Source: Bacteroidia bacterium
GTDB lineage: Bacteria > Bacteroidota > Bacteroidia > AKYH767-A > OLB10
NCBI GenBank assembly: GCA_038211525.1
Contig: JBBQVM010000001.1
Coordinates: 1-57,236 of the forward strand
Reading direction: 5' to 3'
DNA length: 57,236 nucleotides
The notes under the pieces were generated by a model. The model did no database searches, was not told the DNA's origin, and saw only the letters and a program-made list of their open reading frames with translations. Positions 9,886-56,474 of the stretch are shown here, piece by piece (position 1 is the first letter of the stretch; every line of letters begins with the position of its first letter). The position numbers and the translations under genes are program-made.

Positions 9886-10002
9886 GTGCATGAATGACCG
9901 ATTTCGACTAAAGACGTCTAATTAATTGACAAAGAGTCCATCTTGTAAGAGAAATTCTACAAGTTATTAGATAAAAAGCATAAGCAATAAAAGGATTGAG
10001 GT

Positions 10003-20238: not shown

Positions 20239-21969
20239 ATGAAACAGCTATTTTTTTACACCGCATTAATTTTACCTTTTTCCCTTTCAGCTCAGGAGCC
20301 TCTATTACCTTCAATTAGTGGCACCAGTGCCATTCAATACAGTGTTCTCATCACCGAAATCATGGCGGATCCCGACCCTTCCAACGGATTGCCTTTGACC
20401 GAATTCGTAGAACTTTACAATAACAGTCCGGATACGATAAACCTGGCAGGATGGATCCTCTTTGAAGGAAGCAGTAGGGTGTTACCTGCCGTTAACCTGA
20501 ATCCCGGAGCATATATCATTGTTTGTCCTTTGGCAGATACCGGCAACTTTACACTTTATGGAAATTGTGCAGGTATCAGTTCCATGTCCCTTACAAATGG
20601 GGGTGAAAAAATTGCCATTCGCGATCCTTCCGGATTTCCGGTTGATTCGGTGATCTATAGCGATTCCTGGTATGGCTCGGGCTACAAAAAAGATGGAGGC
20701 TGGTCGCTGGAAAGAGTAGATGTTAATTACACTTGTCCAACCGCCTTGAACTGGAAGCCTTCAATAAATCCTTACGGCGGTACTCCCGGACAAACCAACA
20801 GTGTTGCCGGACCCATCATTGATCATACTCCTCCGGTGCTTTTAAGGGCATTTTGTATTGATAGTACTACTATAGTGTTAATTTTTAACGAGCCGATTGA
20901 TCCATCCACTGTCACAATTTTAACTAATTACCATTCACCGGAATTATTGGGAATATCAGGAGCAACTTTGACAGGATTAAATAATGAAAAAATAATAGTT
21001 CATTTATCATCAATAATAGCACCTTCCACAATTTATCATCTCATCGCCGAAGGAATTTCAGATTGCTCAGGCAATACTATTTCTGCAGGAAGCGCCATTA
21101 GGTTTGGACTACCTGATACTATTCAACAACATAATATTATCTTTAATGAAATACTGTTTGATCCTTTTGCAGGTAGTTATGACTTTGTAGAATTGTACAA
21201 TAACGGAACTCTTGTTTACGATTTAGCATCATTAAAAATTAGCAATATTGATGCAGCTACAAAAGAACCGATTTCACTGAAATTAATTTCAGATGAATCG
21301 TATTTAATTTTTCCGGGTGATTATGTGGTGTTGACAGAAAATCCTGTTTCTGTTGCTGATTTTTATAAATCACCTTACCCTTTTCAATTTATTGCTGTTG
21401 CTAATTTTCCCTCTATGAATATTGATGCAGGGTACATTGGTATTTTTTCCAATGGCAATAGCATTGATGAGTTTCAATATACTGATGATTTCCACTTTAA
21501 ATTATTAAATGACACAAAAGGAATTTCTTTAGAGAAAATAAATCCTGGTTTCAATGCTATGAGTCGTTCATCATGGCATTCCTCATCCACCGTTGATGGC
21601 TTTGCAACTCCCGGCTATCGCAATTCACAGTACACTGAAATGGTTGCATCTGATAAAAGTGTAACGGTTACCCCGGAAATATTTTCTCCCGATAATGATG
21701 GATATGATGATTACGTTACTTTTTCGGTTAAAGCAGGAACACCGGGATACCTGTCTAACTTTTGGATTTATAACGCTTATGGACAAGTGGTATTTGATAA
21801 CTCCATCAACAATTTAACAGGAACTTCTGAAATTTTCAGGTGGGATGGAATTGATGCAACAGGGAACCGAGCTCCAGTGGGTATTTATGTTGCTGTGATA
21901 GAATTATTCAACCTTACTGGAACTATTAAAAAATATAAATTGCCCCTTGTATTAGCAACAAAAAATTAG
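20239..21969 (+). CDS. Secreted protein with two lamin tail domains and a C-terminal FSPDNDGYDD-type sorting-like domain
   Basis: ITEIMADPDP...FVELYNNS and FNEILFDP...FVELYNNG LTD signatures; signal peptide; C-terminal FSPDNDGYDDYVTF block. Confidence 0.8.
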   Translation: MKQLFFYTALILPFSLSAQEPLLPSISGTSAIQYSVLITEIMADPDPSNGLPLTEFVELYNNSPDTINLAGWILFEGSSRVLPAVNLNPGAYIIVCPLADTGNFTLYGNCAGISSMSLTNGGEKIAIRDPSGFPVDSVIYSDSWYGSGYKKDGGWSLERVDVNYTCPTALNWKPSINPYGGTPGQTNSVAGPIIDHTPPVLLRAFCIDSTTIVLIFNEPIDPSTVTILTNYHSPELLGISGATLTGLNNEKIIVHLSSIIAPSTIYHLIAEGISDCSGNTISAGSAIRFGLPDTIQQHNIIFNEILFDPFAGSYDFVELYNNGTLVYDLASLKISNIDAATKEPISLKLISDESYLIFPGDYVVLTENPVSVADFYKSPYPFQFIAVANFPSMNIDAGYIGIFSNGNSIDEFQYTDDFHFKLLNDTKGISLEKINPGFNAMSRSSWHSSSTVDGFATPGYRNSQYTEMVASDKSVTVTPEIFSPDNDGYDDYVTFSVKAGTPGYLSNFWIYNAYGQVVFDNSINNLTGTSEIFRWDGIDATGNRAPVGIYVAVIELFNLTGTIKKYKLPLVLATKN

Positions 21970-27412: not shown

Positions 27413-27453
27413 GAGATTTTTGTTTTTTCGACAATAAATTAGTCTCTGTTAAC

Positions 27454-27487
27454 TACGAATTACAAATTGTTACGAATATACAAATGG
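27454..27487 (+). repeat. Solitary diverged copy of the 33-bp ACGGATT-type core found at 55038-56028
   Basis: TACGAATTACAAATTGTTACGAATATACAAATGG versus TACGGATTACGGATTTTTACGGATTACGGATGG: 26/33 matches plus one indel. Six of the seven substitutions are G to A. Confidence 0.7.
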
Positions 27488-54325: not shown

Positions 54326-55036
54326 TTATTTTATTTTTAAAATGTTTTCTCTGCGTATAATTTCTTTGCCTTTCATTCGCAAATAAACATTGGTCAATGC
54401 CTCCACATCTTTTTCGCAATAGGTTACAATTCGGTTAAGGTCGTTGTCTTTCCAATAAACCGACCAAACCATACTTCCATCAATATCATCTTTAGGAGAA
54501 GGGATGCCAAGACTGTAAGCGAGCAAAGTCAGAGGAGTATAGCTTTTAAAATCGCCAAATTTCCACATCTCCATTGTATCCAGGTGATTCACTTCCCAAG
54601 GCTTTTTACCGGCAGTATCGAGTAATACAGGAAGTTGCACTTTATTAATAACCATACGACGTGCAATGTAAGGGAAATCAAATTCGCGACCATTGTGAGC
54701 ACATAATTTGCAATCGGATGTTGCAAAGGATTTATTGAGTAAATCACTAAATTTAGTAAGTACTATTTTTTCATCATGTCCGAAAAAGGATTTTACCCGA
54801 AGTTCATTCACTCCATTGTTAGTAGAAATAAATCCGGTGGAGATACATATAATTCTTCCGAACTCAGCGTAGATGCCCGCCCGAGAATAAATATCACCGG
54901 CGGTTTCGGTTTCGGCCTTTTTAAGATGAAGCGCCTTGTGTTCCCATAATGCCTTCAACTCATCGGGACAATCATTATAGGTTGGAAATTGTGGAACGGT
55001 TTCGATGTCGAGAAAAAGGATTTGTGGTAGATTCAT
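54326..55036 (-). CDS. 3'-5' exonuclease, RNase H-like fold (PolB-exonuclease-related)
   Basis: Exo motifs FLDIET, HNGREFDFPY and YCEKDV; 236 aa. Confidence 0.8.
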   Translation of the reverse strand: MNLPQILFLDIETVPQFPTYNDCPDELKALWEHKALHLKKAETETAGDIYSRAGIYAEFGRIICISTGFISTNNGVNELRVKSFFGHDEKIVLTKFSDLLNKSFATSDCKLCAHNGREFDFPYIARRMVINKVQLPVLLDTAGKKPWEVNHLDTMEMWKFGDFKSYTPLTLLAYSLGIPSPKDDIDGSMVWSVYWKDNDLNRIVTYCEKDVEALTNVYLRMKGKEIIRRENILKIK

Positions 55037-55037
55037 G

Positions 55038-55460
55038 GGATTGAGTTTTTGATTTGCGATTGGAATTTCGTTGTGTTGATACGGATTACGGATGGGGTTT
55101 TACGAAGAGATTTCAGTTAATAAGATACGGATTACGGATTTTTACGGATTACGGATTGAGTTTTTGATTTGCGATTGGAATTTCGTTGTGTTGATACGGA
55201 TTACGGATGGGGTTTTACGAAGAGATTTCTGTTAATAAGATACGGATTACGGATTTTTACGGATTACGGATTGAGTTTTTGATTTGCGATGGGAATTTCG
55301 TTTATAAGATACGGATTACGGATTTTTACGGATTACGGATTGAGTTTTTGATTTGCGATGGGAATTCAGGTAATAAGATACGGATTACGGATTTTTACGG
55401 ATTACGGATGGGGATTTTCTATTTGCAATGGGGTTCCAGTTTATAAGATACGGATTACGG
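55038..55460. repeat. Nested tandem repeat array: 2 x 115 bp plus 3 x about 69 bp, rich in the heptamer ACGGATT
   Basis: Units start at 55038, 55153, 55268, 55337 and 55406. The two 115-bp units differ at 1 position. ACGGAT occurs 21 times. Confidence 0.95.
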
Positions 55461-55466
55461 AGGGGG

Positions 55467-55847
55467 TTAGTAAATATTTAAGACTCTTTTGTGGGTAAGT
55501 TGGTAAATGCCGAAATGCAAAAGAAGGCCTAATTGTTTATCTAAACTGATGAGGTATTTTTTTGTTTGTGCATAGTCGGCCGGTATAATTTTAAAAGTGC
55601 TTTTTAACTCAACTATCACTAAATCTTCTATGATAAAATCTGAAAAATTGCGTTGGATAGTCTTGCCGTGATATGAAATTTTTGAGAACATTTGTTCCTT
55701 AAATATCAATTTTTGAGATAAAAACTCAATCGCAAGTGCTTTTTGATAGATTCTTTCCGGCAACCCACCTCCCAATTCATTATGAACATTAAAGGCACAT
55801 TTGATAATTTGATGCGTGAGATCAGGAAATAAAATTGAGGATTTCAT
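55467..55847 (-). CDS. GxxExxY protein (PD-(D/E)XK nuclease fold, PDDEXK_3-like)
   Basis: GLPERIY matches GxxExxY; D...ELK nuclease-like motif (DFIIEDLVIVELK). The 126-aa product from the ATG at 55847 fits the family length. Confidence 0.85.
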   Translation of the reverse strand: MKSSILFPDLTHQIIKCAFNVHNELGGGLPERIYQKALAIEFLSQKLIFKEQMFSKISYHGKTIQRNFSDFIIEDLVIVELKSTFKIIPADYAQTKKYLISLDKQLGLLLHFGIYQLTHKRVLNIY

Positions 55848-55883
55848 AAAAATGAAAAATGTTAAAAAGTGAATAATTTGATA

Positions 55884-55891
55884 CAAAAATA
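55884..55891 (-). promoter_or_regulatory. -7 box (TATTTTTG) upstream of the GxxExxY gene
   Basis: Exact TAnnTTTG match, 36 nt upstream of the ATG at 55847. It lies inside the longer tracked ORF, which supports the shorter start. Confidence 0.4.
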
Positions 55892-55995
55892 AATAAATAT
55901 TTTAATAAAAAAAATTATTCCAGAAATAAAATATCTAAAAATCTTCAGCTATCAAACAATGTTTTAAAAACAAGCCCTTATCCTAAATCAGATCT

Positions 55996-56028
55996 ATCCG
56001 TAATCCGTAAAAATCCGAAATCCGTATC
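55996..56028. repeat. Inverted copy of the 33-bp repeat core
   Basis: The reverse complement is GATACGGATTTCGGATTTTTACGGATTACGGAT, 32/33 identical to the core of the array at 55038-55460. Confidence 0.85.
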
Positions 56029-56057
56029 AATTTAAACGAAAGTTATTATGAAAAACA

Positions 56058-56474
56058 TTACTTTATCATAACCCCAGTCTTGTTTAAAACCGGTATGTGG
56101 GAAAAATTATCCACCATGATGCTTTCGGGGAGGAAGAGGTATTTTTTATCGTAGATAGTTTTGCCGACGTAAAAGCTTACCCAGAATTCGTTATTGAGTC
56201 CGAATACCTGGCTGTCGATAGGCTCCACCAGGGCTGCGCTCATGGGCTCCACTTCTTCAATAAAATGACGAAGAGTGGCAGTCTTTACTTCTTCACCCTG
56301 AATAGAACCATAGCCGGTAGAGCTCACCAATACCTGATGAATGGGTTGTTTTTTCAGATTGATCAAAAACACATCCCACACGGTAAATTCATTTGGTTCG
56401 GGATCTTCACCCAAATCGGGAACTATAGCGAGGGCGATATCTTCAACACGTAACTCGGGAATATCTTTTAACAT
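56058..56474 (-). CDS. Hypothetical protein (138 aa)
   Basis: Clean ORF with ATG start; no recognisable motif. Confidence 0.6.
   Translation of the reverse strand: MLKDIPELRVEDIALAIVPDLGEDPEPNEFTVWDVFLINLKKQPIHQVLVSSTGYGSIQGEEVKTATLRHFIEEVEPMSAALVEPIDSQVFGLNNEFWVSFYVGKTIYDKKYLFLPESIMVDNFSHIPVLNKTGVMIK

Follow-up and report, generated by a model that had tools for sequence, protein, structure and literature searches.

An ORF-bearing repeat cassette in an operon spacer, with a possible kinship to 23S rRNA intervening sequences

Within the window, that is the whole stretch of 57,236 nucleotides analysed here, a GxxExxY gene lies between inverted arms of the ACGGATT type, and this cassette occupies the spacer between a 138-aa gene and an exonuclease gene. 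Compared with more distant relatives, the cassette is an insertion, and a clade of related genomes keeps it at its site with an intact ORF. Its arms remain complementary while their sequence changes, and they recombine at the DNA level, as illustrated by one inversion variant and by the tandem amplification of the downstream arm. Our preferred reading, to which we give about an even chance (roughly 0.5), is that the locus is a selfish cassette of the type of the 23S rRNA intervening sequences (IVSs), lodged in an operon spacer, whose arms pair as an RNase III-type processing site and also recombine as DNA. The features are:

56058..56474, minus strand: 138-aa gene without Pfam or NCBIfam match (ORF list and family scans); upstream operon partner, with the cassette directly 3′ of it.
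55993..56054, no strand assigned: upstream (gene-proximal 5′) inverted-repeat arm, from the inverted-repeat search; its 33-nt core, 55996-56028, reads GATACGGATTTCGGATTTTTACGGATTACGGAT on the minus strand.
55884..55891, minus strand: TATTTTTG, a match to TAnnTTTG (Bacteroidota -7 consensus) from a pattern search; in the cassette, 36 nt 5′ of the ATG.
55467..55847, minus strand: GxxExxY / PDDEXK_3 gene, 126 aa (PF13366, TIGR04256).
55038..55466, no strand assigned: amplified downstream arm (Tandem Repeats Finder, repeat finder and direct unit reading).
54326..55036, minus strand: PolB-like 3′-5′ exonuclease gene (PF10108, from Pfam); downstream operon partner.
27452..27485, plus strand: solo member of the arm family, CTACGAATTACAAATTGTTACGAATATACAAAT, located in a spacer flanked by two convergent genes; it lacks an inverted partner.

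The period of the downstream arm was recovered by Tandem Repeats Finder at 55038-55323 (period 115, 2.5 copies, 96% matches) and at 55231-55461 (period 69, 3.3 copies). Direct reading resolved two 115-bp units (55038-55152 and 55153-55267, one mismatch between the two), two 69-bp units (55268-55336 and 55337-55405) and a degenerate unit (55406-55466), which together reproduce the nested 115/69-bp array placed at 55038-55460 by the first-pass annotation. Its description of the 115-bp unit as a 69-bp unit plus a 46-bp insert with a half core was likewise confirmed by direct reading, and its count of 21 ACGGAT was obtained again in the array, which comes to within 1 nt of the exonuclease start codon. 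The full cores of the array occupy 55124-55156, 55239-55271, 55308-55340 and 55377-55409, and its half cores 55076-55093, 55191-55208 and 55447-55461. Allowing at most one mismatch, ACGGATTACGGAT has 13 matches in the window, all within 55081-56025, against 0.09 expected by chance. TACGGAT forms period-7 rows in the window, the arms being made of ACGGATT units.

On the other side of the gene, the inverted core announced at 55996-56028 is present, with 97% complementarity to the core 55377-55409. The 33 bp initially given to the inverted repeat stand for the core but not for the whole length, since 55993-56054 matches the 115-bp units over 62 nt with 79% complementarity; similarly, the distance of about 535 bp between inverted copies is true from the array end, whereas the nearest full core lies 586 nt from the upstream arm. 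The flanks of the cassette reach an inverted-repeat score of 28-40, compared with a null distribution whose median is 8 and whose 99th percentile is 14. When the 1031-nt sense RNA is folded in silico, the upstream arm forms a stem with one of the downstream cores in both the minimum-energy and the centroid structures, and this stem encloses the ORF. The arm family is not confined to the cassette: the solo copy at 27452-27485 is close to the arm CTACGAATTACAAATTTTTACGGATATACGGAT of the related contig L001, with agreement at about 28 of 33 positions by reading. A cluster of CG[GA]AT at 20366-20645 was set aside, as it falls within coding sequence and is apparently fortuitous.

Since 33-nt repeats separated by 36-nt spacers yield a 69-bp period, and both lengths fall in the CRISPR range, a degenerate CRISPR array was considered. 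However, the 36-nt ‘spacers’ are near-identical to one another, which rules out a CRISPR and identifies the array as tandem duplications. Moreover, the repeat recurs inverted beyond the gene, no cas family is encoded among the ORFs of 41.6-57.2 kb, and Rfam gave no match, rRNA included, over the whole window at gathering thresholds, so that the probability left to this explanation is negligible. A permissive Rfam scan of 54900-56200 returned a single chance-level match only.

The history of the site could be followed in relatives, for which 80 loci of exonuclease orthologues were fetched. Four related metagenomic contigs (L001, L002, L225 and L226) carry the cassette at the same site; in L001, L002 and L225, the 138-aa gene comes first, then an arm, the 126-aa GxxExxY gene (56-63% identity), the second arm and the exonuclease gene. 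L226 carries the cassette in inverted orientation, the breakpoints falling within the arms, which may be a real inversion or an assembly chimera. In eight more distant relatives, the exonuclease gene comes immediately after the 138-aa gene, at a distance of 9-192 bp, without cassette or GxxExxY gene, and no heptamer hairpin was seen at these eight sites. The initial proposal of a cassette inserted between the 138-aa and exonuclease genes is borne out by these empty relatives, the site being polymorphic (eight times empty, once inverted), and its core recurs both in the arms of the four contigs and in the solo copy of the window.

The arms differ between genomes and are complementary within each of them. 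Across four sequences only, 96.4% of the cells in 35 arm pairs are paired and 8 of the 35 changed on both sides; eight double changes were reached in 1 of 500 shuffles, and slid registers gave 28-40% pairing. Mismatches in 14 arm pairs comprise 16 G:U and 13 A:C, with no excess of the former, hence the sense RNA does not stand out as the molecule under selection, and concerted evolution at the DNA level could by itself maintain the match between the arms.

Terminal inverted repeats of 33-62 nt, together with presence/absence polymorphism between relatives, are also what a MITE or IS-type element mobilised in trans by a transposase would display. Yet arms that differ between orthologous loci while matching within each are not expected of passive terminal repeats. 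In addition, the outer ends of the arms show no evident target-site duplication, the window holds no second full copy of the cassette, and no transposase family is present in 41.6-57.2 kb; the statement that no transposase, integrase or RT lies nearby was indeed confirmed among the ORFs of this segment. We thus consider a mobilised element of this kind very unlikely.

As already recognised from its translation, the 126-aa ORF is a GxxExxY protein of the PD-(D/E)XK type, with matches to PF13366 PDDEXK_3 (8e-30; 104 bits, cut-off 22) and TIGR04256 (1e-30; 106.5 bits, cut-off 35), both cut-offs being passed. When 115 homologues are aligned, no variation is seen at G28, E31, Y34, D70, E80 and K82; of these residues, E31, D70, E80 and K82 are of catalytic type. 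The best PDB structural match of its AlphaFold2 model (pLDDT 89.7, pTM 0.83) is the nuclease core of Cas4 SSO0001 (E = 9e-4, TM 0.57), and further matches are lambda-exonuclease-like enzymes and tRNA splicing endonucleases. On the basis of this model, the protein has the PD-(D/E)XK alpha/beta nuclease core fold and is a predicted nuclease. Searches of PADLOC, PHROGs and PDB sequences with the nuclease gave a weak Cas4 match only (E = 0.004).

The same architecture is found at other loci, around genes of two families. The six four-helix-bundle genes first found (family TIGR02436; 2e-28 for L194) are all bracketed by inverted 7-8-nt arrays, the units of which are specific to each locus, and the genes of L194 and L197 are directly upstream of exonuclease orthologues; for a seventh (L229), no inverted repeat scored with its called start. 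About half of the independent GxxExxY loci lie between inverted arrays, and other GxxExxY genes are inserted co-oriented in conserved operons (wzm/wzt, nuoH/nuoB-like genes, epimerase pairs). Candidate cultured carriers are Carboxylicivirga marina, with the order wzm-GxxExxY-wzt (L227/L228), and Labilibacter marinus (L238). Inverted-repeat scores exceed the null 99th percentile for 4 of the 7 four-helix-bundle genes and, on the GxxExxY side, for the window clade, L229, L231 and L234. The expectation that other GxxExxY genes would be flanked in this way holds for L227, L229, L231, L233, L234, L237 and L238, but not universally. No flanking inverted repeats are present in L009, L232, L235, L236 or the viral-contig homologues, and the 23 viral-contig PDDEXK_3 homologues have flank scores at the null level, as does L009, so that inverted flanks as a universal attribute of PDDEXK_3 are rejected. 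The literature on GxxExxY / PF13366 / TIGR04256 and on TIGR02436 / PF05635 provided incidental mentions only, in which flanking arrays are not described.

With respect to repeat sequence, the CG[GA]AT motif was defined from the window and then tested on other loci only. At least four copies are present in the flanks of 8 of 12 independent GxxExxY loci, belonging to several phyla, against a background of 10.9% (p = 6.6e-6), whereas four-helix-bundle loci have 0-3 copies and no enrichment. A REP/RAYT-like system acting at the DNA level would account for this association: the GxxExxY protein would be a sequence-specific nuclease with ACG(G/A)AT(T) as cognate site, cutting or binding the repeats or cruciforms and thereby promoting homing, inversion, flank amplification and the spread of solo repeats and of units that combine gene and repeat. 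The enrichment is in its favor, tempered by the origin of the motif in the window itself and by the other repeat units of L229, L232 and L234. The invariance of E31, D70, E80 and K82 would also suit a nuclease, yet four-helix-bundle cassettes exhibit the same architecture without any nuclease gene. The L226 breakpoints inside the arms and the repeated amplification of the downstream flank at GxxExxY loci (window, L231, L239, L238 and L227) are further points in its favor, as is the solo arm of the window, which the Labilibacter arms (CTACGAATTACACAAATT...) resemble; on the other hand, neither target-site duplications nor identical multi-copy elements were seen. Finally, some genomes contain many ACGGATT arrays among the matches listed, but only one of the 119 listed loci has a GxxExxY gene (L009, about 4 kb away) and none has a GxxExxY ORF within 350 bp. 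Taking these points together, we hold such a nuclease-repeat system to be possible but doubtful.

ACGGATT tandem arrays and hairpins occur at no fewer than 119 loci in many phyla, the hairpins also without enclosed gene. No protein family recurs beside the 119 listed arrays, and the lack of any GxxExxY ORF near them indicates that the heptamer on its own is generic; ACGGATT arrays as markers of GxxExxY genes were consequently rejected. One may then ask whether arms and gene have any functional link at all. The arrays could be generic intergenic hairpins (REP-like mRNA stabilisers, terminators or slippage-prone repeats), with a horizontally acquired gene placed in the loop by chance and the array produced by ordinary unequal recombination. 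Besides the hairpins devoid of gene, ‘empty’ inverted arrays just upstream of exonuclease orthologues (L154, L155, L158, L167), the many intergenic spacers of L231 with 7-9-nt arrays of differing units, and tandem duplications of 228-320 bp in L227 and L231 are in line with this view. Heptamer arrays of no known function have also been described, among them 70-75 inverted pairs in Xanthomonas (PMC4692102). However, such arrays are almost absent elsewhere in the 57-kb window, none of the eight empty sites at the cassette position has a heptamer hairpin, both gene families include loci scoring above the null 99th percentile, and the CG[GA]AT enrichment is specific to GxxExxY flanks. A purely fortuitous association is in our opinion unlikely.

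According to the IVS-type reading, the loop of a long hairpin would hold the small gene, and the two arms of this hairpin would be inverted heptamer-type arrays. Read-through transcripts from the 138-aa gene would contain the two arms, which could pair into a 33-60-bp duplex enclosing the ORF. In the experimentally characterised Coxiella 23S IVS, tandem GACAGAT heptamers of variable copy number adjoin the S23p ORF, and RNase III cuts an inverted-repeat stem at the first repeat, which excises the IVS (PMC4990558). By analogy, we infer that the arms pair in RNA and that the duplex is a substrate of RNase III, whose cleavage would excise the cassette from the operon transcript and so allow the host to tolerate the insertion. 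The arms would be kept matched by template switching or gene conversion and, because short tandem units can pair in several registers, slippage would leave the stem intact. A promoter-like element within the arms might also drive expression of the gene: the -7 box initially attributed to the ORF was found as the TAnnTTTG match at 55884-55891 (minus strand), a consensus match only, to which cassette orthologues show near-matches only. This position counts against the IVS-type reading, since the cassette's own transcript would lack the 5′ arm. A sigma-70 promoter scan gave no match above shuffled expectation, and an intrinsic terminator scan found none.

The 23S rRNA IVSs were described around 1990, and their origin, mobility and function have been unclear since (PMC4990558), as has the function of two very large families of small proteins linked to them, the four-helix-bundle (S23p) and GxxExxY families. 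Ordinary operon spacers are shown here to harbor the cassette build, inverted heptamer arrays around a small ORF; among relatives, the site exists in filled, empty and inverted form; and the repeat motif of the GxxExxY family is conserved across phyla. The question thereby becomes testable with a cultured organism and the purified 126-aa protein. There are also practical consequences: the arrays can be mistaken for CRISPRs, they break assemblies, as attested by the N gap in L239, and inserted cassette genes have been mis-annotated as operon subunits. A bolder proposal, which we put forward as a rather improbable one, is that GxxExxY proteins are sequence-specific PD-(D/E)XK nucleases for ACG(G/A)AT(T), in DNA or RNA, and that gene and inverted arrays form an unrecognised REP/RAYT-like selfish system in operon spacers of at least five phyla, being, along with the four-helix-bundle cassettes, the free-living form of 23S IVSs. 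If true, it would explain where IVSs originate and how they move.

RAYTs are HUH Y1 transposases, and REPs are single palindromes existing in hundreds of near-identical copies. The REP/RAYT analogy drawn in the first-pass annotation holds as geometry only, there being no HUH transposase here. As in REP/RAYT (REPIN) loci, a nuclease-type gene is flanked by an inverted short repeat also present elsewhere, at 27452-27485. Unlike a RAYT, the window gene matches only PF13366, with a predicted PD-(D/E)XK fold, and unlike REPs, its arms consist of heptamer arrays whose sequence varies from genome to genome. The 57-kb contig holds one solo copy of the arm family.

The window shares tandem 7-nt spacer units in an inverted pair with the intergenic heptamer repeats of other bacteria (cyanobacterial STRR, Xanthomonas GGGAATC, Beggiatoaceae TAACTGA). 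These repeats, of no known function, often form convergent pairs and vary in length between relatives (PMC4692102, PMC4679880); in the passages searched, neither an enclosed gene nor a link with GxxExxY or four-helix-bundle genes is mentioned. By contrast, the arrays of the window enclose a gene and belong to a larger unit that has been amplified. The non-rRNA four-helix-bundle genes (TIGR02436 / PF05635 23S_rRNA_IVP) of the loci fetched have the same cassette build and are co-oriented between unrelated genes; they differ in fold and family and in their units (GGTGAGT, GTAGACG, GACTTTT and others), without CG[GA]AT enrichment.

Of the two analogies originally proposed, that with 23S rRNA IVSs holds best, in view of the four-helix-bundle genes and of the Coxiella heptamers (PMC4990558). 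Unlike these IVSs, which reside in helix 25 or 45 of 23S rRNA, the window cassette sits in an mRNA spacer between two protein genes; its ORF is a GxxExxY PD-(D/E)XK protein and not a four-helix-bundle S23p, and one of its arms is amplified into a 423-bp nested array. Like the ORF-bearing IVSs of Coxiella burnetii, Leptospira and others, it consists of an ORF of about 120-130 aa in an inverted-repeat stem loop, with tandem heptamers beside the ORF as in Coxiella, here ACGGATT units. It likewise possesses terminal inverted repeats (33-62 nt, 79-97% complementary) with a predicted stem enclosing the element, and shows a sporadic distribution, being present or absent between relatives.

The contig, most likely of Bacteroidota origin judging by its 37% G+C and its genes for a T9SS-sorted protein (Por_Secre_tail) and a DUF5916/CBM9 protein, carries the cassette among three minus-strand genes within 3.2 kb:

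54326-55036, minus strand: PolB-like 3'-5' exonuclease, 236 aa (PF10108)
55467-55847, minus strand: GxxExxY ORF, 126 aa from its ATG (PF13366 PDDEXK_3, 8e-30; TIGR04256 GxxExxY, 1e-30)
56058-56474, minus strand: 138-aa ORF, no family match

A TTG start 13 codons upstream of the GxxExxY ATG would give 139 aa instead. The amplified arm (55038-55461) fills the gap that separates the GxxExxY stop codon from the start codon of the exonuclease, and Tandem Repeats Finder resolves it into periods of 115 (2.5 copies, 96% matches) and 69 (3.3 copies). The first-pass annotation had described two 115-bp units followed by three of about 69 bp, the last degenerate, and direct reading agrees, with two 115-bp units (one mismatch), two 69-bp units and one degenerate. 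The duplication is nested as proposed, the 115-bp unit being the 69-bp unit plus 46 bp with a half core, and the 21 reported ACGGAT were all counted again in the array. With at most one mismatch, ACGGATTACGGAT matches 13 times in the window, always within 55081-56025, against 0.09 expected. The inverted core placed upstream of the gene was also recovered: 55996-56028 is 97% complementary to 55377-55409, and inverted complementarity with the 115-bp units reaches 62 nt at 79% (55993-56054). Transposase, integrase and RT families, said to be missing nearby, have no member among the ORFs of 41.6-57.2 kb. The locus observation is real and an artefact is excluded. CRISPR and MITE/IS readings both fail on defining features.

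The arm family also has a solo copy, CTACGAATTACAAATTGTTACGAATATACAAAT, at 27452-27485 (plus strand). This copy occupies the 148-nt spacer where the genes for a T9SS-sorted BNR-repeat protein and a class II aminoacyl-tRNA synthetase converge, lacks an inverted partner and is unpaired in the predicted fold.

The earlier claim of an insertion between the exonuclease and 138-aa genes is borne out by eight empty sites in relatives. Scanning metagenome contigs with the exonuclease protein gave 80 orthologous loci, of which 8 keep the 138-aa gene as upstream neighbour at a spacing of 9-192 bp, and in those 8 neither a GxxExxY gene nor a heptamer hairpin separates the two genes. Spacings of 9-10 bp at empty sites suggest an operon of these two genes. 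For the 138-aa protein, Pfam, NCBIfam, PADLOC and PHROGs give no match, and we regard it as an uncharacterised, predicted partner of the PolB-like 3'-5' exonuclease. It is conserved (39-59% identity), with the exonuclease gene tightly linked in several lineages.

Orthologues of the 126-aa protein, 56-63% identical, occur on four related metagenomic contigs. Three of them (L001, L002 and L225) share the window order of 138-aa gene end, arm, GxxExxY, arm and exonuclease, and L225 has the beta-lactamase-like and DUF5916 neighbours as well. Because their arms are single-copy, the array is specific to the window's lineage. The arms are clearly homologous, namely GATACGGATT(T/A)CGGATTTTTACGGATTACGGAT in the window, GACTACGAATTACAAATTTTTACGGATATACGGAT in L001, GGCTACAAATTACAAATTTTTACGGATATACGGAT in L225 (40 bp, perfect complementarity) and GGCTACTAATTACGAATTTAAACGAATATACTAAT in L002, and they differ at many positions, each matched by its own partner. 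Across the four aligned sequences 96.4% of cells are paired, and both sides have changed in 8 of 35 pairs, a number of double changes reached in 1 of 500 shuffles; slid registers pair at 28-40%. Flank inverted-repeat scores at these loci are 28-40 (null: median 8, 99th percentile 14). The cause is either selection for pairing or homogenisation of the arms, through gene conversion or through template switching at quasi-palindromes (an established mutational process). A wobble test does not separate the two: among 14 arm pairs G:U-type mismatches are no commoner than A:C-type ones (16 vs 13).

On the fourth contig (L226 1-992, JGI Ga0455924_0054979) the cassette has the opposite orientation with respect to the 138-aa gene, and its breakpoints fall within the arms. 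The arm beside the 138-aa gene combines an outer flank of the upstream type, TATAGAGACTAC, as in L001, with an inner flank of the downstream type, GATTTTGAGCA, as in L225, which is the expected product of arm-arm recombination. This single 992-bp contig could reflect a natural inversion between the inverted repeats or else a chimeric assembly. In Labilibacter (L238), ATTCGTG units lie upstream (1909-1937) and CACGAAT units downstream (2375-2403), the reverse of the usual polarity, and this arrangement is consistent with occasional gene inversion between arms.

Arrays of this kind also exist apart from the gene. When one genome per species was scanned for TACGGATTACGGAT-N(1-10)-ACGGAT, at least 119 stretches came up. 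The matches listed span Chloroflexota, Bacteroidota, Planctomycetota, CPR bacteria, Vibrio, Shewanella and others, and consist of (ACGGATT)n arrays, many of them laid out as hairpins whose loops measure 10-170 nt. In none of these matches does a GxxExxY ORF lie within 350 bp of the array, and their neighbouring genes show no recurrent protein family. Two papers describe intergenic heptameric repeats without known function (PMC4692102, PMC4679880), and one of them counts 70-75 such pairs, convergently oriented, in Xanthomonas (PMC4692102). At L154 (2895-2975), L155, L158 and L167 (2810-2985), inverted arrays built from other units stand 'empty' immediately before the exonuclease orthologue, on its upstream side, as gene-free hairpins with heptamer or octamer arms and loops of 27-150 nt, the arms being duplicated in L158. 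The ACGGATT heptamer by itself is generic. A passive reading, with a gene hitch-hiking in a generic hairpin, seems to us unlikely. At one other GxxExxY locus, L231, many intergenic spacers of the whole 20 kb hold a 7-9-nt tandem array whose unit differs, and tandem duplications of 228-320 bp occupy large gene-free gaps there and in L227 (2964-3419, 4613-5369).

The AlphaFold2 model of the GxxExxY protein, a confident one (pLDDT 89.7, pTM 0.83), best matches the nuclease core of Cas4 SSO0001 in the PDB (E = 9e-4, TM 0.57), followed by lambda-exonuclease-like enzymes and other Cas4 and, more weakly, by tRNA splicing endonucleases and Hjc. Because the catalytic residues E31, D70, E80 and K82 are invariant in 115 homologues and the 126-aa ORF is intact in 5/5 clade orthologues, the gene is under constraint and its product is probably an active nuclease. 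We derived the motif CG[GA]AT, which forms the core of both ACGGATT and ACGAATT, from the window and tested it on other loci only. At least four copies in the two 200-nt flanks were found at 8/12 GxxExxY loci, whereas control window pairs taken from those loci reach this number in 10.9% of cases (binomial p = 6.6e-6); the enriched loci belong to Bacteroidota, Spirochaetota, Gemmatimonadota and Cloacimonadota, and four-helix-bundle loci carry 0-3 copies. The enrichment suggests that this motif is particular to GxxExxY genes as a family. In Labilibacter the arm (CTACGAATTACACAAATT...) is similar to the solo arm at 27452-27485. Amplification of the downstream flank recurs in L231 (45 bp, 2.6 copies) and L239 (109 bp, at least 2.2 copies), where a run of N at 2455-2550 inside the array indicates that such arrays break short-read assemblies; L238 and L227 have spaced duplicate arms. 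Both the enrichment and the intact catalytic residues speak for the main rival, a REP/RAYT-like system whose nuclease would act on its own ACGRATT repeats. We hold it to be rather unlikely; four-helix-bundle cassettes, which have the same build without a nuclease, speak against it.

A search for long-range inverted repeats across the collected loci found such a cassette in L194 (2547-2991), a 131-aa four-helix-bundle gene (TIGR02436, 2e-28) between (GGTGAGT)n and (ACTCACC)n. This one and that of L197 (2278-2956) sit immediately before, on the upstream side, an orthologue of the exonuclease gene in the window, so a different cassette family has reached a site of this type independently. Inverted 7-8-nt arrays with locus-specific units surround 6/6 first-found four-helix-bundle genes (L194, L197, L018, L082, L104 and L120); at a seventh, in L229, no inverted repeat scored from the called start. 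Among 12 independent non-viral GxxExxY loci, the gene is mostly co-oriented inside a conserved operon, with insertion sites such as wzm/wzt (Carboxylicivirga), epimerase pairs and IspD-like/xanthine dehydrogenase. In a Cloacimonadota MAG (L237, 1005-2923) it is co-oriented between NADHdh (NuoH-like) and Oxidored_q6 (NuoB-like) in a respiratory-complex operon, flanked by CACGAAT/CACTAAT units and their inverse. The idea that other GxxExxY genes have inverted flanks held in part: L227, L229, L231, L233, L234, L237 and L238 carry inverted arrays, or else short inverted repeats, at their flanks, but L235 has a downstream heptamer hairpin only, L236 and L232 have direct repeats, and L009 and the viral-contig homologues have no flanking repeats and no flanking inverted repeats, respectively. 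Together, some 20 loci are suggestive of a cassette architecture general to both families.

In L229 (8123-10410) a four-helix-bundle gene shares its operon with a GxxExxY gene located 1.4 kb further downstream. The arms of the latter (CACAAGAT units) abut its ORF, with the ATG falling inside the upstream arm. In Carboxylicivirga marina (L227/L228, ~9900-10000) a remnant of 17-36 codons resembling the GxxExxY N-terminus, MVEGILLKDEAYESLGR*, lies between two direct upstream-arm copies just before the intact gene.

We give a probability of about one half to the window cassette being a selfish element of the IVS type in an operon spacer, a reading compatible with the REP/RAYT-like one and not exclusive of it. 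Folding predictions for the 1031-nt sense RNA, minimum-energy and centroid alike, pair the upstream arm with one of the downstream cores, so that the entire ORF is enclosed. Read-through transcripts would form a long arm duplex, presumably processed by RNase III, and at the DNA level the arms also recombine, giving inversion and amplification, as comparison between loci shows.

The IVS of Coxiella burnetii, 428 nt in helix 45 of 23S rRNA, combines a stem of inverted repeats with an ORF for S23p (four-helix-bundle), with tandem GACAGAT heptamers of strain-dependent copy number immediately upstream of the ORF; it is excised by RNase III, with the cut at the start of the first repeat, and the origin and function of IVSs are called unclear (PMC4990558). 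Every structural element of this build is also present in the window cassette, which differs in host site and ORF family. While the IVS type itself was already known, what is new here is an IVS-like element outside rRNA, with a nuclease gene as cargo.
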